This document shows positions 4,156 to 33,680 of a DNA stretch of 41,329 nt, one piece after another (positions within the stretch are counted from its first letter, which is position 1; every line of letters begins with the position of its first letter). Made by a program: the position numbers and the translations under genes. This DNA comes from a virus: the UHGV virus genome UHGV-0077431; one strand, written 5' to 3'. The notes below the pieces were generated by a model. It was not told where the DNA came from, made no database searches, and saw only the letters and a list, made by a program, of their open reading frames with translations.

Positions 4156-5335
4156 ATGCCATTTTTATTTCTGCATGCGGTACTTCAACCCATTCAACAT
4201 GATTCTGGGTATAAATTTTTGTCGATTTTGCATCACTATGGGCCATCCTTGCCTGCGGATCGATACCTTGTCTTTCGAAAATATGAGCCGCCAGCGCTCT
4301 AATCTCGTGGAAAGTTGGCCTTTCTTTGATAGGTAATTCTGCCGCTACACCTATCCGGTCCCGCAGCTCTGAAAATGCCCTGCTCAAATAGTCAGGGGCC
4401 ACCTGTGTTGGGTGGTTAACTTCCTTGCTTATCGGATTGCTTCTCTTTTCCAGAAGCCGGTGAACAACATAAGGACTGGCCACATTGTCTCTGCTGTTGT
4501 CGATGATCTCTTTCAGGGCCCTGCCGATCGGAATAGCGACGTGTGAAGCCTCTTTGTGCTGCACTTTTTGCCGGTGAATGTAAAGCGTTCCGAATATGCC
4601 AGCCTCCTCCTGATCGAACCATACACAGCCGCAAACCCCTTCTTGAGGTTCCTTGATCGAGTACCGGATCCGGGAAACTTCCAGGCGCGCTTGCGTAGTT
4701 TGTATGGCAAGGTCCATTGCAGTCTTCAGCCAAGGTTCAGCAGCTGCATGTATGGCCAAGAACTGTTCCAAAGTGAGTCGCCGGCGGACCTTTTTATCGA
4801 CACGCCGCATTTTTTTCCGTGTTGCAGGGTTATCCATCATTAGCGATTCATCAACAGCATAAGAGAATAGCTTTTTCAGGAAGCTAACTTTTCGGTTCTG
4901 AACATTGGCCGACGATTCAGAATGGTAATTTCGTATGTAGGCATTTACGTGCTCAAGCTCAATATCGCATGCGGGTATGTTATTAAAAAATTCTTTAACC
5001 CTGATGGCATCATTATTCCAATCGTCAAGTGTGCTTTTAGACGGCTGCTCATCTTTGATCGCTCTCTCCATAATGCGATCAACATGTTCAGAAAACGGGT
5101 GGGCTTCACCATTCAGCCCTCCCGATTCCCGAATTAATGAATCTATCGATGGTGTATTTTCAGGGCGCATCCTCAGGTTATATTCTCGGGCGATGGCGAT
5201 AGCCATTACTCGATCCGAACCGAGAGTTTTCTTTTTCCCAGTTATAAGCGTGAACTTATACACGCCACGATCTTTATCAAAAAAAAGATAATCAGGAAGG
5301 TGGCGGTATTCTTTTTTTCGTGGCCTTGCTGCCAT
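4154..5335 (-). CDS. int: Tyrosine integrase (lambda Int family)
   Basis: C-terminal catalytic region with H-x-x-R (FHEIRALAAH) and Y (KIYTQ); ATG at 5335 has GAGGG 6 nt upstream (track start at 5341 is TTG). Confidence 0.9.
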   Translation of the reverse strand: MAARPRKKEYRHLPDYLFFDKDRGVYKFTLITGKKKTLGSDRVMAIAIAREYNLRMRPENTPSIDSLIRESGGLNGEAHPFSEHVDRIMERAIKDEQPSKSTLDDWNNDAIRVKEFFNNIPACDIELEHVNAYIRNYHSESSANVQNRKVSFLKKLFSYAVDESLMMDNPATRKKMRRVDKKVRRRLTLEQFLAIHAAAEPWLKTAMDLAIQTTQARLEVSRIRYSIKEPQEGVCGCVWFDQEEAGIFGTLYIHRQKVQHKEASHVAIPIGRALKEIIDNSRDNVASPYVVHRLLEKRSNPISKEVNHPTQVAPDYLSRAFSELRDRIGVAAELPIKERPTFHEIRALAAHIFERQGIDPQARMAHSDAKSTKIYTQNHVEWVEVPHAEIKMA

Positions 5336-5337
5336 GG

Positions 5338-5547
5338 TCAACCCTCAATTATTAACTGACGTACCGCCTGATTAACAATTGAGTCAACTCCCCACTTTTC
5401 GGTTTCATAGACAAAAACTGAACCATCTACAATCCTTCCCATGAGTAATCCGTTTTCGACCCAACGTTTAATTGTACGGTTGTCAGGAATGGAGTCTTTG
5501 GTAAATTCGCGCTTACTCCAGAGACTCGCTTTCATTAGCTTTGCCAT
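5338..5547 (-). CDS. xis: Excisionase (lambda Xis-like)
   Basis: Motifs RTIKRWVENG and DGSVFVYETEKW resemble lambda Xis; ATG at 5547 has AAGGA 4 nt upstream; stop adjoins int start. Confidence 0.7.
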   Translation of the reverse strand: MAKLMKASLWSKREFTKDSIPDNRTIKRWVENGLLMGRIVDGSVFVYETEKWGVDSIVNQAVRQLIIEG

Positions 5548-5591
5548 GGTTTCCTTCTCCATAAAGCCCGGCTGCACCCGGGCTGAGTGGT

Positions 5592-6164
5592 TTACTCGTT
5601 GGTGCTGGTGGCAGGGATAATTTTCTGCCAAATTGCTGACACATATTTTGCCTGATGGCGCGCATCAGCCAGGGCGTTATGAACATCGCCAATGAAAGGC
5701 ATGTCACGCTTCGGATCGAAACCAACACTGCGACCGAGGGTAACAATCGTGCGTACATCATGATCGTTCCAAAATTCCCACGGGCAAATGCGTCCGGCGC
5801 GTTCGTAAGCTCCGCGCAGAATCACATTGTCAAAGGTGGCCCCGTTACCCCAGACCTTCATGTATTTGAGATTATATGCATGCCGGTGAATGAAATGGCT
5901 AAGTTCCGACAGTGCATCAGTGATAGGCATCGCATCATCAACGCAAATAGCTGAGCGCGCCTCAGGGCTTTGTTTTAGCCACCAAAGAATTGTATCTCCA
6001 TCCGGTACCGCGCCTTGAGCCATTGCGCTTTCAAGCGAGACGGCCGTGTAGAATTCTTGGCCAAGTTCACCTGTTTGAGGGTTAAAAAAGACGGCACCAA
6101 TTGAGACGATCGGCGCGTTTGGCTTTTTCCCCATTGATTCGAGGTCAATCATTAAATCGTTCAT
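5592..6164 (-). CDS. DEDDh 3'-5' exonuclease (DnaQ-like fold, prophage type)
   Basis: Acidic motifs (MIDLESMG, WGNGATFDN, HNALADARH) typical of DEDDh exonucleases. Confidence 0.7.
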   Translation of the reverse strand: MNDLMIDLESMGKKPNAPIVSIGAVFFNPQTGELGQEFYTAVSLESAMAQGAVPDGDTILWWLKQSPEARSAICVDDAMPITDALSELSHFIHRHAYNLKYMKVWGNGATFDNVILRGAYERAGRICPWEFWNDHDVRTIVTLGRSVGFDPKRDMPFIGDVHNALADARHQAKYVSAIWQKIIPATSTNE

Positions 6165-9916: not shown

Positions 9917-10228
9917 TCTCGGTTCCTCAGCGCATCTGCACAGACGCTAAAAAGTTAGTTTCTCCATACACAACAGAGAAGGGCACCTGCATTGGTCGGC
10001 GGCTTGCAGAGACCGCTTTCTTTTTGCCCGGGTGGATTGGGTTATGAGCCCGTCGCCCGGTGATGCCCTTTTCTGTTGTGCCCTGAAAAAGGCTGGCGGT
10101 TACCGGAAATACACGGGAAAACACCGGGCCGCCAGAACAGGGAGTTACTTGTTATTGCTTTAGCCTGCTTTTAACCACATCAGGCGCGGTGGTATCTTGG
10201 TGTTCTCACACAACCAAGAGGGATGTTT

Positions 10229-10426
10229 ATGGGCGCTTTTGATAACCAGGAAATTACGTTACCCGCATGCCCTAAGTGCGGCACTAAGACGAAGAAGAAA
10301 ATCGCTTGGCTCAAGTCGAACAAAAGTTTCACTTGTCGATGTGGAGCTACTATCAATGTCAACAGCAGCCAGCTTACTTCCGAAATCAGGAAGGTTGAGG
10401 ACAAGCTGAAGAAGCTCTTTAAATAG
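10229..10426 (+). CDS. Small C4 zinc-ribbon protein (65 aa)
   Basis: GAGGG 6 nt before ATG; CPKCG...CRCG; followed by intrinsic terminator. Overlaps antisense with 10259..10624. Confidence 0.45.
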   Translation: MGAFDNQEITLPACPKCGTKTKKKIAWLKSNKSFTCRCGATINVNSSQLTSEIRKVEDKLKKLFK

Positions 10427-10624
10427 TTTTTTATCGACTGATATTATTTCGTTATCAGAGGTTGGTTTTTCAGCCTCTGATTTTTTAGTCAGGATCATTT
10501 TTTCTACACATGTGACTACGCATTCCGAACAGATGGCAGGTTCGTCCTTACCACCTTTTGCGACGATCTTTATCGCTCCCAGTTCGGTTGCTCCGCAAAA
10601 TGAGCATGTGAATAAATGATTCAT
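10259..10624 (-). CDS. Small protein with ClpX-type N-terminal zinc-binding domain
   Basis: CSFCG-x7-KIVA-x8-ICSECV-x2-C matches the ClpX ZBD pattern; GAGG 5 nt before ATG at 10624; C-terminal third is antisense to 10229..10426. Confidence 0.5.
   Translation of the reverse strand: MNHLFTCSFCGATELGAIKIVAKGGKDEPAICSECVVTCVEKMILTKKSEAEKPTSDNEIISVDKKLFKELLQLVLNLPDFGSKLAAVDIDSSSTSTSETFVRLEPSDFLLRLSAALRACG
10454..10486 (+). terminator. Intrinsic terminator (ATCAGAGG stem, T6 tract), plus-strand only
   Basis: 8-9 bp stem followed by TTTTTT on plus; A-rich on minus. Confidence 0.7.
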
Positions 10625-10729
10625 GTAAACCTCTACCCCCAACCTAAGTTTTCTGTCAGCGAATCATCCGGTTATTCATATGCCACCGGCGGCTACTTCG
10701 TGGGCGTCCTGCCTGTTCGCTGTTGATGA

Positions 10730-10810
10730 ATACATAATTAACCAATGGCTAATATTTGTAAACAACCAATAGTTAATTTTTGAGTGTTTAGGAATTAACT
10801 CAATGATTTT
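10730..10810. promoter_or_regulatory. oL-like operator/promoter region
   Basis: AT-rich intergenic region with repeated GTTAAT/ATTAAC motifs also present at oR (GTTAATTTTTG at about 10772 versus GTTAATTTTG at 12524). Confidence 0.45.
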
Positions 10811-10880
10811 TAATAAAATACATTTTGTTGTTAAGTGATGACGTGCTTAAAAAAAACACCATCTACAAAAGAGGAGTGTT

Positions 10881-11087
10881 ATGGAACGTGATGATCTGGA
10901 AGAAGACCGCGCAGCGTTCATTGCTGGCGAGATAGGCGGAGTGGTGATTCAGTTAATCATCGAAGGGATCGAAATCAACCGTGATAATATCGTTGAGTAT
11001 CTGGAGGCAAAGCGTCGCGCGGTTGGTAACGTGATCCACAAAGGCTTGCTGAGAGATGCTGCGGAATTTGTGAGGAAAGGGCAATAA
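10881..11087 (+). CDS. Hypothetical protein (68 aa)
   Basis: AGAGGAG 5 nt upstream of ATG; ends at a shared terminator. Confidence 0.55.
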   Translation: MERDDLEEDRAAFIAGEIGGVVIQLIIEGIEINRDNIVEYLEAKRRAVGNVIHKGLLRDAAEFVRKGQ

Positions 11088-11112
11088 AAACCCGACGCGG
11101 TGGTCGGGTTAG
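11088..11112 (-). terminator. Terminator ending the cI operon (CCCGAC stem, U5 tail on minus strand); possibly bidirectional
   Basis: Hairpin cccgac-gcggtg-gtcggg with TTTTT on minus-strand RNA directly after the stop of 11109..11300. Confidence 0.6.
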
Positions 11113-11300
11113 AACAGGAGTTTAACTGCGGCTAGGGTCAGACCTGTGATTGTAAAGATCGCACCAACTATCGACCAAGTCTGAATCCTGAGTTCCTTTT
11201 GTAGGTCTTCTCGTGTCGCGTAATTAGACTTGATAACAGCAACATCAGTCTTAATGGACGCGATATCTACCTCAAGCTGCCTAACTCTTGCTTCAAGCAT
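11109..11300 (-). CDS. Small coiled-coil protein with C-terminal transmembrane helix (63 aa)
   Basis: GGAGGTGA 5 nt before ATG at 11300; heptad-like [23 protein letters not shown] then hydrophobic [22 protein letters not shown]. Track ORF extends to 11423. Confidence 0.55.
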
Positions 11301-11367
11301 ATCATCACCTCCGCCATCTCCGCCTCGTCGTGTTATTGCAGGTAGTTCACTATTAAATGGTACTACA

Positions 11368-11715
11368 TTATTTTGCGGCGTCGGCATTTTTTTCATCTTC
11401 CGTTTTTGCCGGGAATTTTTCATTTACCCAGTTAAGAACTGAAAACGCATTTATATGTGTTTCATTTCCACAATTGTTGCATATTAGTGAAAAGTAATAC
11501 TGGTTAGCAGTATCGGAATAAATGCTTTTTTCAGTAAAAACATTTACATAACTACCAAGCGCCATAGTGCATGGCATTCCAACACTCGCACTGACTTGAG
11601 GCACCGTTAACCTGTCATGCCCACATAGCGTGCATTTTAGATATATATTCTTTTCTGAGAAGTAAGAGACTAACATGTCCATGTTGATCCTTTCGAACCC
11701 CTGTTCACTCGCCAT
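11368..11715 (-). CDS. Cys-rich putative zinc-binding protein (115 aa), first gene downstream of cI
   Basis: CTLCGH ... CNNCGN motifs; GAGGA 8 nt before ATG. Confidence 0.55.
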
Positions 11716-11731
11716 TCACATATCCTCAGAG

Positions 11732-12466
11732 TTAAAGTCGATTATATTTAATTGACTCATGAATCAATGCCTTACCCATGACATAAAGCTGATCCTGATT
11801 CGCCTCATTGATGTACCACTTTTCATATGCAGAGTTATCAGACAGAACAGCGAGCTTGTCACCTTGCATCTGTAGGCGCTTAACATGAAACGTCTTACCG
11901 TATACGAAAGAGTAAACACCGTCGGTCTGGAAGTGACGAACTGAGATGTCGACGAATAGTCGATCACCAGAAACGAGGGTTGGTGACATACTGTCGCCGT
12001 TAACAGTCATGACCTTCACATCTTCTGGATCGCGATTTCCAAAAAGCACTCGGGCATGTTCAGTCGTGAACTCAATGGCGTACAAGACTTCAACATAGTC
12101 AGAAAGCATGTAGGTGCCAGGTCCAGCACTGACAGATAAATCCAGAACTTCAACGCGATAAACATCCTGCTCTGGCTTATTAACCATGCGTTTCACTTCC
12201 CCTGTATCTGTTGGCTCACCAACACCGTATTCCAGCCATTCGGCACGTACACCAAGTACTTTACTGAGAGCCACTATTTTCTGACTGTCCGGTATGGCCT
12301 GGGCGTTGAACCACTTCCAAACTCCAGGTGTAGTGATCTCCACCCCGGCTTTATTAAGCAGGTCTGCAAGGTTTTTGTTTCGTCCCCGACCAGTTAATCC
12401 AGCAAGTTGACAAACTTGCAGCAGCCTAGTCGTGAAACCTTCTTTCGTTTCGTCTCTCTTAACCAT
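11732..12466 (-). CDS. cI: CI-type prophage repressor (HTH + LexA-like S24 peptidase domain)
   Basis: C-terminal VNGDSMSPT...HVKRL (Ser/Lys dyad context); divergent from cro across an operator-rich spacer. Confidence 0.9.
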   Translation of the reverse strand: MVKRDETKEGFTTRLLQVCQLAGLTGRGRNKNLADLLNKAGVEITTPGVWKWFNAQAIPDSQKIVALSKVLGVRAEWLEYGVGEPTDTGEVKRMVNKPEQDVYRVEVLDLSVSAGPGTYMLSDYVEVLYAIEFTTEHARVLFGNRDPEDVKVMTVNGDSMSPTLVSGDRLFVDISVRHFQTDGVYSFVYGKTFHVKRLQMQGDKLAVLSDNSAYEKWYINEANQDQLYVMGKALIHESIKYNRL

Positions 12467-12549
12467 TAGTTAAATATCCGGGAACTTGACTTTGCTGTCA
12501 GTTAATATTTATTATTAACTTGTGGTTAATTTTGTAATCAGGAGAGTCA
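12467..12549. promoter_or_regulatory. oR/pR/pRM-like divergent control region
   Basis: TTGACT (12485-12490) with TTATTA about 17 nt downstream; palindromic GTTAATAtttattATTAAC and GGTTAATTTTG. Confidence 0.6.
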
Positions 12550-12798
12550 ATGAACGCTGTAGAAATTGCAGTAGAAGCTGTCGGTGGACAAACAGCAGCC
12601 GCAAAAATTTGTGGTTTATCCCCGGTAGCTGTTCACCGCTGGGTTAAAAACGCCTGTCTTCCTCGTACCGAATACACAAAAAAAACGGAATACGCGGAGT
12701 TACTTGCTTCTAAATCAGCAGGTCAGTTCACTGCTGACTGGTTGCTGGAAAATGCTAATCCTGATCGTCCAGGAAAGGTTAACGATCCATCAGCTTAA
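12550..12798 (+). CDS. cro: Cro-like repressor (Cro/YdaS family HTH)
   Basis: HTH GGQTAAAKICGLSPVAVHRW; GGAGAG SD; position opposite cI. Confidence 0.75.
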   Translation: MNAVEIAVEAVGGQTAAAKICGLSPVAVHRWVKNACLPRTEYTKKTEYAELLASKSAGQFTADWLLENANPDRPGKVNDPSA

Positions 12799-12826: not shown

Positions 12827-13390
12827 GTGGATAAACAACACTGGAAAGTAGAGCGCCAACCTGCATGGCTGGTGGCTGCAATCAAAAGAACTATTGCCGA
12901 AATGCCAGGCGGTTATACAGAAGCTGCTGAATGGCTTGGCCTGTATCGCGCTGGAAAACTCTCAACGGATGCGCTCTACAACAGACTGCGTAACGAAGGA
13001 GATCAAATTTTCCCGCTTGAGTGGGCGATGGTGCTTCAGGATGCAAGTGGTACTAAGTATGTCACCGATGCGATAGCCCGCCGTAGTGGTGGCGTCTTCG
13101 TTCCGCTGGTGGAGGTTGATGATCTTGATAACGGCGATATCAACCAGCGCCTGATGGAGTCCATCGAATGGATTGGTAAACACTCGCAGTACCTGCGTAA
13201 GGCAACCGCTGACGGGGTTATTGATCCGGCAGAACGTGAGCAGATTGAAGAGAACAGCTATCAGGTGATGGCTAAGTGGCAGGAACATTTGACGCTGCTT
13301 TTCCGTGTGTTTTGTGCGCCGGAAAAAGGTGACGCCCGCGAGTGTGCAGCTCCGGGCGTCGTGGCAGACAAATCTTGTATGGAGAAGTAA
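12827..13390 (+). CDS. CII-like regulatory protein (YdaT-like)
   Basis: Position after cro; GTG start with GGGGA SD; family call from memory only. Confidence 0.55.
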   Translation: MDKQHWKVERQPAWLVAAIKRTIAEMPGGYTEAAEWLGLYRAGKLSTDALYNRLRNEGDQIFPLEWAMVLQDASGTKYVTDAIARRSGGVFVPLVEVDDLDNGDINQRLMESIEWIGKHSQYLRKATADGVIDPAEREQIEENSYQVMAKWQEHLTLLFRVFCAPEKGDARECAAPGVVADKSCMEK

Positions 13391-13562: not shown

Positions 13563-13736
13563 ATGCGCGAAGTTAACCGAAGGTTCAAAGACCACAGAGG
13601 GATCCCCGTTCGGGTTATCCGGTGGGAGCCTGAAACGCGGCGTGTTATCTACCTGCGAGCAGGGTATGAGCACGAATGCTTCAGCCCACTTGAGCATTTC
13701 AGGCAAAAGTTCAGGGAGATAGAGGATGAGAGCTAA
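13563..13736 (+). CDS. Small hypothetical protein (57 aa, MREVNRRFKDHRGIPVRVIRWEPETRRVIY...)
   Basis: ATG with AGGAAGG upstream; protein-like composition; not in ORF track. Confidence 0.45.
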   Translation: MREVNRRFKDHRGIPVRVIRWEPETRRVIYLRAGYEHECFSPLEHFRQKFREIEDES

Positions 13737-13764
13737 CCCAATGAAAAAAAACTTAACTGAGAAT

Positions 13765-14145
13765 TTATCCTGCCAGGGCATTAATCCTCAATTTGATAGC
13801 CTTTTCTTCAACTTTGAACCTCTTTTTCAGGTCTTCGAGTTCTTTGGCGAGAGCAATGTATTGATCCGCAACTCCATATTGAGCAATCAGTCCGGTTGCC
13901 AGTTTAGCATCGGCGTTTTCTGGATCATCAACATCGATGATTTTTCCATATTTTCCGGTAATAACGGCAATACGGTGCTTGCACATCGTGCCCATTTCAC
14001 CAGCAATGCAAGTGCATTCTATTTCGAGGTTACCGCTCTGATCGCTGATGGTTACATCGTAAAAACCATCACCGCTGCTGCTGTTAGCCAAAAGTTGGTA
14101 GATCACGTTGTATCTCCTTATTTTTTTGTAGCGGTTAACGCTCAT
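13765..14145 (-). CDS. SWIM-type zinc-finger protein (126 aa) with C-terminal coiled coil
   Basis: CxCx(n)CxH motif (ECTCIAGEMGTMCKHR); GAGGT 5 nt before ATG at 14145; opposite orientation to flanking genes. Confidence 0.6.
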   Translation of the reverse strand: MSVNRYKKIRRYNVIYQLLANSSSGDGFYDVTISDQSGNLEIECTCIAGEMGTMCKHRIAVITGKYGKIIDVDDPENADAKLATGLIAQYGVADQYIALAKELEDLKKRFKVEEKAIKLRINALAG

Positions 14146-14436
14146 CCCAACCTCATTATTGATCATGCTTTATTCCAGGTATACACTGTCTCGGCAGCGG
14201 CAAAATCCGTTGCCGGGATTGGCGTCCTGGAATTGATTAAAGAGCACAACCGCGCTCTGGCGGTTTTTTTGTGCGAAATGCATTGCTACACCCTGATTAT
14301 GGTGGGGCGTGCAGGGGCATCGAAAGATGCGCCGGCTTCTTTAGTCACCGGTTACGCCAACCCTGCACGTCTCACCACCAATGAGATTGGCGTCTCTTGT
14401 GGTGAGTTGTTAAAACTGACTAAAGAGGCAGCCATC

Positions 14437-14982
14437 ATGGCTACGATCCCAACCCTCGTTCAACCTGAAATTTCCGTAATTAACGGTCAGGCCGTTACCT
14501 CCTCTCTGGCTATTGCCGACTTCTTCACTAAGCGTCACGATGACGTACTGAAAAAAATCCGCGCTCTGGAGTGTTCGCTAGAATTCACTGCCCGCAATTT
14601 TGCGGTGAGTGAATACACCGACGCTACAGGCCGCAAACTTCCCTGCTATCAAATCACCCGCGATGGCTTCGCGTTCCTCGCTATGGGCTTCACTGGTAAG
14701 CGAGCAGCACAGTTCAAAGAGGCATACATCACAGCCTTCAACAGGATGGAAAATGCGCTTCACGGGGCAAGTGATAATTTCTGCGCAGCGCACAATGCCC
14801 ACGTTGTTTACCTCTACATGTCTGAAATTCACCGCGTCTGGTTAGAACAACTTTATCCGATGTTGGTTTCTGTTCAGTCTCCGCTAGCTTCATCACTCTA
14901 CGACTACATCAACGATGGTGTATTCGTTGCTGGGTTGGTGGACTCGGAACTGAACAAAAAGCACAAGGAGGTGCGAAAGTGA
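14437..14982 (+). CDS. Rha-family phage regulatory protein
   Basis: N-terminal motif NGQAVTSSLAIADFFTKRHDDVLKKI; AAAGAGG 8 nt before ATG. Confidence 0.7.
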   Translation: MATIPTLVQPEISVINGQAVTSSLAIADFFTKRHDDVLKKIRALECSLEFTARNFAVSEYTDATGRKLPCYQITRDGFAFLAMGFTGKRAAQFKEAYITAFNRMENALHGASDNFCAAHNAHVVYLYMSEIHRVWLEQLYPMLVSVQSPLASSLYDYINDGVFVAGLVDSELNKKHKEVRK

Positions 14983-32928: not shown

Positions 32929-33351
32929 ATGTTTCTAAAGAGCGAGCTGCTTGAAAGTAACGGCAGCAGCGTCACATTGTTCCAGCTGTCGGCGCTGCAG
33001 CGTATTGAATACCTCGAATACCTGAAACAACTTGAGGCGGTTGAAGCTGGTGATTTTCAGGCTGCCATTACCCTTACCGTGAAGAGTGGAGCATATCTGG
33101 TGGCAATGTCACTCTGGCATGGCCACGCGCTTAAAGGATCGCAGGGAGAAAACGCGGCGGCGGAAGTGGAGCAGATTCAGGATGAGGTCATGCAGACATG
33201 GCCGACCGAACTTGTTGCCGAAGCCGAATATAAGGTGAAACTCCTGTCCGGGATGATTGCGCCGGTCACTGATGACCAGGCTGAGCCCGGTGAAGAACGT
33301 AATGAACCCGCTGAACCTGTTACTGCGGAAAAGCCCTCGCCAGTGAGCTGA
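32929..33351 (+). CDS. G: Tail assembly chaperone G
   Basis: Lambda gpG-like (MFLK, LVAMSLWH). Confidence 0.85.
   Translation: MFLKSELLESNGSSVTLFQLSALQRIEYLEYLKQLEAVEAGDFQAAITLTVKSGAYLVAMSLWHGHALKGSQGENAAAEVEQIQDEVMQTWPTELVAEAEYKVKLLSGMIAPVTDDQAEPGEERNEPAEPVTAEKPSPVS
33327..33333 (+). other. Candidate -1 programmed frameshift site GGAAAAG (G to G-T fusion)
   Basis: A AAG A-site slip sequence 6 codons before the G stop; the -1 frame is open from 33315 and continues into T. Confidence 0.55.
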
Positions 33352-33359
33352 AGTTTGCC

Positions 33360-33680
33360 ATGAAACTGGCGCGTGAGTTCGGTCGCCCGGACTGGCGTGC
33401 CATGCTTGCTGGCATGTCCTCAACGGAATACGGCGACTGGAAAATCTTCTACCAGGACAATTACTTTCATGATGCGCAGCTGGATGCTCATTTCTCCGGT
33501 TTGCTCTACACCATCTCAACCCTGTTTTTTGCTGATCCGGAATTAACACCGGACAGTTTCAGCATCCTTTCCCCTGTATCGGAAAGCATCGACGTTGATG
33601 AGCCGGATGACGATACGCTGATGGCGAAGGCTGCAGGTATTTCAGGAGGCGTGCGCTATGGCCCAGACGGCAGTGGGTGA
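33360..33680 (+). CDS. T: Tail assembly protein T (expected to be expressed as a G-T frameshift fusion)
   Basis: Lambda T-like (LAREFGRPDWRAMLAGMSSTEY); lies in the -1 frame relative to G. Confidence 0.8.
   Translation: MKLAREFGRPDWRAMLAGMSSTEYGDWKIFYQDNYFHDAQLDAHFSGLLYTISTLFFADPELTPDSFSILSPVSESIDVDEPDDDTLMAKAAGISGGVRYGPDGSG

Follow-up and report, generated by a model that had tools for sequence, protein, structure and literature searches.

The virus genome UHGV-0077431, analysed as one stretch of 41,329 bp (hereafter the window), carries a lambdoid immunity region at about 10.2-13.4 kb, in which a leftward cI repressor operon is flanked by two control regions, oL and oR, and a gene of 68 amino acids (aa) runs rightward between oL and the terminator of that operon. 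The comparisons reported here make it likely that a lambdoid prophage has its immunity switch here, that repressor and operators form a specificity variant of the type described for phage 933W, and that the 68-aa gene is a separate module. The proposed operator unit is the 17-bp site ATTAAC-N5-GTTAAT with the 15-bp core TTAAC-N5-GTTAA, and from its distribution and conservation we infer that it is bound by the repressor CI. The exact immunity region was absent from every phage-collection record and from every complete E. coli genome searched.

Operator unit and its distribution

A preliminary description of this DNA had drawn attention to GTTAAT/ATTAAC half-sites recurring on both sides of the cI operon. 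One of the copies that it listed, GTTAATTTTTG, was confirmed at 10772-10782; another, GTTAATTTTG, was found at 12525-12534, so that only its coordinate, given as 12524, was one base off. On both strands of the window, GTTAAT was observed 27 times compared with 17.6 expected, and six of the 27 copies (at 10737, 10772, 10794, 12501, 12514, and 12525) were located within the two intergenic stretches flanking the cI operon, which measure 238 and 83 bp and have a G+C content of 30-36%.

When the paired motif ATTAAC-N5-GTTAAT was searched across the whole window with up to two mismatches, only four matches were obtained (10737, 10761, 12458, and 12514), all confined to the oL and oR control regions. 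Two of them are at oL; of the two at oR, one is intergenic and the other has the cI start codon at its centre. Local shuffles that preserved the dinucleotide composition gave 0.046 matches at oL (P ~0.001) and 0.016 at oR (P ~1.5e-4), against the two observed at each. The 15-bp core with at most one mismatch occurred six times where 0.76 matches were expected, with perfect copies at 12459 (O3) and 12515 (O1). An independent repeat finder likewise recovered a 24-nt tandem unit at oL (79% identical) and two 15-nt arms at oR, corresponding to O3 and O1. The individual sites, to which no strand was assigned, were the following, L004-L006 being three related prophages described below.

10737-10753: oL1, ATTAACCAATGGCTAAT, one mismatch to the palindrome; overlaps the spacer and -10 of predicted pL; kept in L004-L006
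10761-10777: oL2, AACAACCAATAGTTAAT; 24 bp from oL1, a spacing as in 933W/phi24B; overlaps the -35 of predicted pL
10794-10810: lone ATTAAC half-site, ATTAACTCAATGATTTT, three mismatches; doubtful as a third operator; overlaps the -35 of a candidate rightward promoter
12458-12474: O3, CTTAACCATTAGTTAAA; centred on the cI start codon; overlaps the -10 and start of predicted PRM
12490-12506: O2, CTTTGCTGTCAGTTAAT, three mismatches, with a weak left half; in the spacer of predicted PR and over the -35 of predicted PRM
12514-12530: O1, ATTAACTTGTGGTTAAT, perfect palindrome; covers the end of the -10 and the start site of predicted PR

Spacings at oR were 24 bp between O2 and O1 and 32 bp between O2 and O3. 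The palindrome GTTAAT-ATTTATT-ATTAAC, which had been read as an operator, is present at 12501-12519, but as a unit it dissolves into the right half of O2 and the left half of O1. A search with GTTAAT-N7-ATTAAC returned this single intergenic match and no comparable N7 site at oL, and the N7 palindrome was ruled out as the operator unit on these grounds. A third oL operator at 10794 was also rejected, the lone half-site not being conserved in the homoimmune prophages L004-L006; with only this three-mismatch copy, oL does not show the third site of a lambda-type operator set.

One further operator-like site, TTAACCGAAGGTTCA, was found at 13573-13587, with one mismatch to the 15-bp core. It is located inside a small open reading frame (ORF), in related loci a DUF4222-family gene, that comes after the cII-like gene, and it may be of chance origin, given the 0.76 matches expected window-wide.

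Covariation of the half-sites with the repressor

Relatives were identified by a repressor scan using one genome per species. The same cI N-terminal domain was found in three prophages (L004-L006), from Citrobacter (95% identical), from a record titled Vagococcus sp. (78%), and from Phytobacter (72%). All three keep the sites at the same spacings (oR centres 32 and 24 bp apart, oL centres 24 bp apart), and it is the bases of the 5-bp spacers and those outside the outer site edges that vary. At O1, conservation among the relatives ends directly after GTTAATTT, and at O3 the half-sites are conserved around a variable spacer. The O2 position has two mismatches in L004-L006 and is a good palindrome in a fourth prophage, L007; with a cI that is 60% identical, L007 has three sites at the same positions with the half-sites GTTCA/GTAC.

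The E. coli prophages CX12 and GB089 have the C-terminal cI domain, the downstream 115-aa gene, and the flanks in common with the window. Their cI N-terminal domain is unrelated, and a different motif occupies both oL and oR. Half-sites were therefore kept where the N-terminal domain was the same and replaced in place where it was another, so that the motif tracks the DNA-binding domain of the repressor. Together with a layout like that of 933W, this supports the earlier suggestion that the half-sites serve as operators common to oL and oR.

The repressor and its relation to 933W

11732-12466, minus strand: cI repressor, 244 aa, with an N-terminal 933W-like helix-turn-helix (HTH) and a C-terminal S24 (LexA-like) autoprotease domain (Peptidase_S24, PF00717, E = 8.5e-17)

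The catalytic dyad of cI, GDSM (Ser159) and VKRL (Lys196), was invariant across the alignment, as was the S-A-G-P-G segment at residues 113-117. With an S24 domain, a Ser-Lys dyad, and an Ala-Gly-type linker site, the protein has the predicted features of a LexA-like self-cleaving repressor.

In the phage collection, the closest cI N-terminal domains were those of Stx phages, with 38-49% identity. The domain was 36-38% identical to that of the phi24B/933W cI (tblastn: 38% over 81 residues, E = 3e-11). For phi24B we used the immunity-region record (GenBank EF517298), which its depositors call similar to 933W. Its annotation gives only two OL sites, OL1 TGAACCAATAGTTCG, which in 933W is the counterpart of oL1, and OL2 AAGAACTATTGGTAC, at a distance of 24 bp; OR3 is located over the cI ATG, followed by OR2 and OR1 at 33 and 24 bp further.

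The 933W site is 15 bp long and rotationally symmetric, with positions 2-5 conserved among the five natural sites; it has been defined as two 5-bp halves around five central bases, the A-C at positions 4-5 being invariant; one half-site of OR2 deviates, and a model together with mutants linked Lys42 to the reading of position 2 and Lys46 to that of position 4 (PMC3317979). Compared with this definition, the window has a 15-bp symmetric site (TTAAC-N5-GTTAA, conserved in the homoimmune loci), three OR and two OL sites with OR3 over the cI start codon, and a homologous N-terminal HTH that retains V-x-K-W-F-N in the alignment. The departure is at half-site position 2, where good half-sites have T instead of G and where the residue aligned with the reading lysine is Pro47: the 933W segment S41-K42-G43-V44-S45-K46 corresponds to T46-P47-G48-V49-W50-K51 here. 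L007 retains Lys and Ser in the recognition helix together with G at half-site position 2.

A paired change of protein and site would be expected from a specificity variant within the 933W family. T at position 2 combined with Pro47 thus points to such a variant, heteroimmune to 933W, and the operators would represent an altered-specificity member of a known 933W-type switch. Read in this manner, the window would hold a natural specificity swap in the 933W repressor family, G to T at position 2 with Lys42 to Pro (and Ser45 to Trp). The position 2 swap would offer a direct test of the published 933W recognition model, and the operator motif would predict which prophages are homoimmune.

Predicted promoters and proposed switch

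10734-10762, minus strand: predicted pL, -35 TTTACA (10762-10757), 17-bp spacer, -10 AATTAT (10739-10734)
12473-12501, minus strand: predicted PRM, -35 CTGACA (12501-12496), 17-bp spacer, -10 GATATT (12478-12473)
12486-12515, plus strand: predicted PR, TTGACT, 18-bp spacer, TATTAT

Predicted PR matched the consensus at 10 of 12 positions and scored 12.6 with a position weight matrix (PWM), and it is conserved in L004-L006. Predicted pL (9/12, PWM 9.3, start near 10727) and PRM (9/12, PWM 9.1) both have their two hexamers conserved in the same three prophages. An alternative PRM, ATTACA-16-AATAAT (12538-12511), was rejected, as its -35 is not conserved in the relatives. The predicted PRM start coincides with the A of the cI ATG or is adjacent to it, which would make the cI mRNA leaderless. 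Just 4 bp separate the predicted -35 hexamers of PR and PRM (12486-12501), and the distance between the predicted starts is about 56 bp, compared with 82 bp in lambda; the same arrangement was found in L007. Simultaneous occupancy of the two promoters is probably not possible.

In the switch that we propose, CI dimers would bind the 15-17-bp symmetric sites ATTAAC-N5-GTTAAT. Occupancy of O1 and O2 would shut PR, occupancy of oL1 and oL2 would shut pL, and occupancy of O3 would limit cI synthesis from the leaderless PRM transcript. Repression would be lifted by RecA-stimulated self-cleavage through the S24 domain.

The 68-aa rightward gene and its transcription

10871-10876, plus strand: Shine-Dalgarno sequence GAGGAG
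10881-11087, plus strand: 68-aa gene, phrog_3975, predicted AriR/YmgB-like three-helix fold
10839-10847, plus strand: extended -10 position of the gene family, TGACGTGCT here; hexamer CGTGCT, with positions 1 and 2 lost
10795-10824, plus strand: best candidate rightward promoter, TTAACT, 18-bp spacer, TACATT; PWM 8.1 compared with 12.6 for PR; putative

The rightward gene with a strong Shine-Dalgarno sequence that had been noted beside oL is real. Its product matched phrog_3975 over the full length (E = 7e-35) and has 598 homologues, nearly all of 68-74 aa. The gene is under purifying selection (ratio of nonsynonymous to synonymous substitution rates, dN/dS, of 0.05-0.12, with synonymous sites near saturation). 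An identical protein was encoded on 68 contigs, is indexed in 162 blocks of the collection, and recurred, with its gene context unchanged, in draft NCBI assemblies (one of them E. coli, going by the protein name in the source) and in metagenomes; UniRef labels the identical phage protein 'Biofilm development protein'.

In its relatives, the gene is always located on the strand opposite to that of pL, between pL/oL and the 3' end of the cargo that follows the repressor gene. This position was found in Salmonella Gifsy-like prophages, which have non-cleavable repressors, and in HK225, HK639, and phi80. Identity with known Gifsy genes was considered and rejected. GfoA, GftA, and FsoA do not correspond to it: FsoA is encoded within the left operon, and the antirepressor genes of Gifsy lie elsewhere than in the immunity region, gfoA appearing immediately ahead of dinI in the gene list (PMC3121763). 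STMMW_26411, the anaerobically induced Gifsy-1 gene, measures 633 bp and is located beside dinI, the sizes of STM14_3218-3220 do not fit, and for Gifsy-1 of D23580 no gene is listed at the position corresponding to the 68-aa gene.

It had been proposed that this gene is transcribed from the oL region and may be under the control of CI. The family pattern, examined in 63 distinct upstream sequences from 97 loci, does not support this, although CI control may apply in this particular phage. The 50 bp ahead of the ribosome-binding site are conserved across immunity types and consist of a T-rich block (ATTTATTTTT), TGnTATG(C/A)T with a freely varying n, and then CAAAAAAACAYCA. TGnTAnnnT was present in 45 of the 63 sequences, with TATGCT occurring 36 times and TATGAT six times. 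Such a pattern is, at the level of sequence, the signature of an extended -10 promoter belonging to the gene and not to the operators.

In the window, the hexamer after TG reads CGTGCT and so lacks the A2 of the extended -10 pattern of sigma-70 promoters (TG at -15/-14, then a TATAAT-like hexamer with A2 and T6), a change common to all eight sequences of its lineage. A start from the family position is predicted at about 10854, 85 bp from the centre of oL2 and 109 bp from that of oL1. With the -10 hexamer damaged in this lineage, expression would have to be weak or come from the substitute promoter at 10795-10824 (predicted start about 10831). The TTAACT -35 of this candidate shares bases with the lone ATTAAC half-site, and its -10 is TATATT in the sister loci L061 and L062. 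From its position in many heteroimmune phages and its family promoter, the 68-aa gene looks like an accessory or regulatory gene whose expression does not depend on the operators and probably occurs in the lysogen.

A conserved hairpin upstream of the gene (UGAU...AUCA with an A-rich loop) was rejected, having no consistent compensatory changes in 59-63 distinct sequences, and its varying base is the n of TGnTATGCT. Two further observations concern this upstream region in other prophages. In phi80 (L070), an unannotated homologue with 42% identity at 2498-2692 is located directly right of the annotated third CI operator; it has a perfect TGATATGCT extended -10, with three direct repeats of TGTTGATTT just upstream. 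In the Salmonella prophages L063-L068, some 70 bp ahead of the 68-aa gene, there is a unique palindrome, GTTCATTTTTGAAC, with its centre about 42 bp before the start predicted for that gene's promoter; it differs from the operators of that prophage (GTAAAG...TTTAC) and may be the site of another regulator.

Predicted fold of the 68-aa protein

The AlphaFold2 model of the 68-aa protein featured three helices with a predicted local distance difference test (pLDDT) score of 93.8. A Foldseek search of the PDB with this model returned 2OXL_A (YmgB/AriR) with a probability of 1.00, template modelling (TM) scores of 0.77/0.84, and a root-mean-square deviation of 0.7 Å over 54 columns; 2OXL was the sole strong structural match in the PDB, the next match having E = 0.87. 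The modelled protein thus has the three-helix fold of AriR/YmgB. At the sequence level, no Pfam match was obtained even at E values up to 10, the AriR/YmgB family (PF10798) included, and no PDB sequence match was found. Alignment of the 68-aa profile with K-12 AriR using hhalign gave E = 7.8e-4 with a probability of only 25% (residues 18-64), and a fold search of BFVD with the model was uninformative.

By analogy with AriR, the 68-aa protein may target a signalling or regulatory protein of the host. The family is common in Enterobacteriaceae prophages and occurs even in the classic phage phi80, where it is unannotated. Its fixed position opposite pL and its AriR-like fold suggest it as a plausible lysogenic-conversion or regulatory factor.

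A conserved leader RNA downstream of predicted pL

10659-10720, minus strand: 5'-terminal structured RNA of the predicted pL transcript; outer stem of 5 bp, GGC/GCC stem of 3 bp, inner hairpin of 5 bp

Heteroimmune prophages have in common a conserved stretch of 84 nt that follows directly on the predicted pL start. Within this stretch, 13 pairs in three helices were 99.6% paired in 19 distinct sequences, with compensatory changes at eight of the 13, compared with 18-51% paired in slid-partner controls. The single-sequence folding energy was not better than that of shuffles (z = +1.0), so that it is covariation only that speaks for the structure. A covariance model found one copy in the window (10647-10730, minus strand, 101.8 bits) and no second one. 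Copies were present in 49 of the 97 loci, nearly all of which have the 68-aa gene, and in e14 of E. coli K-12 between ymfJ and ymfK (NC_000913.3, ~1202101-1202185, 74.4 bits). Using blastn, the leader RNA was found in 1,838 of 5,426 complete E. coli genomes. Among the matches listed, none of 25 records had an annotated feature beneath it; it had no Rfam match, its sequence was not found in the literature, and it bore no resemblance by eye to the putL-like RNA of HK639.

The leader RNA is located where nutL would be. The earlier remark that no Arg-rich N-like ORF is present agrees with our annotation, in a search that was not exhaustive, the first gene left of pL encoding a ClpX-type zinc-finger protein. 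The RNA may stand in for N/nut, with antitermination, Rho protection, or transcript stabilisation as possible roles.

A stronger version of this proposal, which we regard as rather doubtful, is that the 62-nt leader RNA is a new cis-acting N/nut replacement and that the AriR-like protein is a connector expressed in the lysogen, both being part of the switch. If this were true, the immunity-specific pL/oL cassette would sit between two conserved switch modules, and the AriR-like connector would tie host signalling (Rcs, biofilm, stress) to prophage carriage. Widespread, unannotated, and present in E. coli K-12, the leader RNA is perhaps the most useful lead from this region.

Weighing of the alternatives

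Several points weigh against a 933W-type variant switch with the 68-aa gene as a separate module. Every promoter assigned here is predicted from a consensus match. The left half of O2 is poor, with three of six positions matching, and O2 is centred near -32 of the predicted leaderless PRM, over the -35 hexamer; this position is unsuited to lambda-style activation and casts doubt on either the PRM assignment or what O2 does. O2 may activate PRM or limit it. The 933W repressor reportedly activates PRM. For the 68-aa protein, the link to AriR is weak in sequence, as seen from the absence of a Pfam YmgB match and from the 25% hhalign probability, and a small three-helix fold could be convergent. 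Its family promoter is mutated in the window, so that independent expression is deduced from the relatives and not from the window sequence. In phi80/HK225, HK639, and L064 (Salmonella), moreover, the promoter of the gene has a third operator-like copy directly beside its -35 region, which makes an influence of the repressor on the 68-aa gene plausible in some phages.

The loss of the family promoter would also fit a gene that is silent or decaying here, a hitch-hiking remnant whose promoter has been knocked out and which has no role in the switch. Consistent with this, CGTGCT replaces TATGCT/TATGAT in all eight lineage sequences, and the gene has a frameshift in homoimmune Citrobacter (L004), survives only as fragments in CX12 and GB089, and is absent from L005 and L006. 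However, the ORF is intact in the window and has a strong Shine-Dalgarno sequence, the identical protein is encoded on 68 contigs, and a substitute promoter of similar score is located 20 bp upstream and is improved to TATATT in the sister loci. We consider such a decay unlikely.

Less likely again is an operator of 19 bp, GTTAAT-N7-ATTAAC, supplemented by single half-sites, with the 68-aa gene as an early gene transcribed rightward from oL and silenced by CI in the lysogen. A perfect N7 palindrome does exist at 12501-12519, the ATTAAC at 10794 overlaps the -35 of the best rightward promoter and lies 33 bp from oL2, near the 32-bp spacing of O2 and O3, and in phi80 the annotated third operator abuts the promoter of the 68-aa homologue. 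Yet the N7 arrangement is single and has no oL counterpart, whereas N5 accounts for five sites and matches 933W, and the half-site at 10794 is not conserved in the homoimmune relatives. The promoter of the 68-aa gene is also conserved across immunity types while the operators change. In 933W-type systems there is no OL3 and no cooperative repressor binding that would help a half-site (PMC5977221).

That the repeats are chance occurrences in AT-rich intergenic DNA, or bind another protein (Cro only, or a host factor) and not CI, is highly improbable: the G+C content of 30-36% and the mild enrichment of the hexamer alone across the window would allow it, but local dinucleotide shuffles almost never gave two sites per region, the half-site changes follow the repressor DNA-binding domain across relatives, the layout is the same as that of the footprinted 933W sites, and binding of Cro to these sites, which one expects of a lambdoid phage, is no alternative to CI binding. 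A specificity variant of the 933W-type switch, with the 68-aa gene as a separate module, is the reading that we retain.

Other genes of the immunity region and neighbouring features

11368-11715, minus strand: 115-aa gene, phrog_4293, 3' of cI; 97% identical in the heteroimmune E. coli prophages L002/L003
11109-11423, minus strand: last gene of the cI operon, phrog_6324; 104-aa ORF, with alternative gene calls of 63 or 92 aa; hydrophobic C-terminal segment
11089-11110, minus strand: intrinsic terminator of the cI operon; the hairpin is also directly 3' of the 68-aa gene, and on the plus strand it is without a U-tract
12550-12798, plus strand: cro-like gene (YdaS/Cro family)
12827-13390, plus strand: CII/YmfL-like gene

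A terminator scan scored the hairpin at 11089-11110 as a terminator on the minus strand, that of the cI operon, only. To the left of 10643, the leftward genes include the ClpX-zinc-finger gene and rdgC. In place of the window's two small genes 3' of cI, the Citrobacter sp. Cu233 prophage (L004) has two ORFs at 4306-5786 that resemble a Ser/Thr kinase and a PP2C-type phosphatase by their sequence motifs, which recalls stk 3' of cI in 933W/phi24B.

An ORF of 65-67 aa at 10223-10426 (plus strand) has its own ribosome-binding site and would encode a zinc ribbon with weak Lar/Com-like Pfam matches; it is followed by a hairpin at 10454-10481 that is a strong intrinsic terminator on the plus strand. 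This ORF is antisense within the 121-aa ClpX-zinc-finger ORF at 10259-10624 (minus strand), which matches the shorter family phrog_5259 over no more than its first ~56 aa. With this partial match, one of the two overlapping readings may be spurious.

Rightward of the switch, two Rfam matches above the gathering score were found on the plus strand, isrK at 14194-14270 (74.6 bits) and C4 antisense RNA at 14295-14382 (81.2 bits). They adjoin in the upstream part of the long ORF at 13726-14982, either within the gene or ahead of it; in related loci, the product of this ORF has Phage_ASH and Phage_pRha domains. The segment looks like a P1/P7-like antisense-RNA-controlled antirepressor module, which would be a second immunity-type circuit.

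Comparison with known systems

AriR (YmgB, 2OXL), annotated as a putative two-component-system connector, is small and all-helical like the 68-aa protein (62-88 aa). Identity between them is 20-23% with no match to the Pfam family, and, unlike ariR, the 68-aa gene is single and located beside a prophage pL instead of in a ycgZ-ymgA-ariR-ymgC operon. Closer counterparts are the phi80 ORF (NC_021190, ~33348-33542), HK225 gp41, and HK639_46, which are 40-72% identical to the 68-aa protein, are located just right of pL/oL in the same orientation, and have a TGnTATGCT element upstream. These phages differ from the window in their repressors and operators and in having N/nut (phi80) or a put-like RNA (HK639).

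With lambda, the window has in common divergent PR and PRM under three operators, pL operators over the -10 and -35, an SOS-cleavable repressor and a leaderless cI mRNA (both predicted in the window), and accessory genes that are co-transcribed with cI and end at a terminator beside oL. Unlike lambda, the window has no OL3 and, in a search that was not exhaustive, no N gene. The cI ATG is at the centre of O3, the PRM -35 is covered by O2 instead of flanked by it, and a small rightward gene is located between oL and the cI-operon terminator.

The closest known system is 933W/phi24B, with the work of Koudelka and co-workers as reference (PMC3317979, PMC5977221). The half-sites differ at position 2 (T here, G in 933W), as do the residues corresponding to K42 and S45 (Pro47 and Trp50 here), and the N-terminal domain of the window has a 5-residue insertion ahead of the recognition helix. 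The C-terminal domain of the window cI comes from a different mosaic (e14/SfV-like prophages), and the cargo 3' of cI is other, with no stk in the window and a putative kinase/phosphatase pair in the relative L004. 933W has no OL3, and its repressor does not bind cooperatively (PMC5977221). In both systems, the site is 15 bp long with two 5-bp halves, AAC at positions 3-5, and a spacer that is often CCAATAG-like. OL1-OL2 and OR1-OR2 are 24 bp apart and OR2-OR3 32-33 bp, and there are three OR and two OL sites, with OR3 covering the start codon of cI and one of the OR2 half-sites deviating. Both repressors join a homologous HTH, in which V44, K46, W47, F48, and N49 are retained, to a C-terminal S24 autoprotease.

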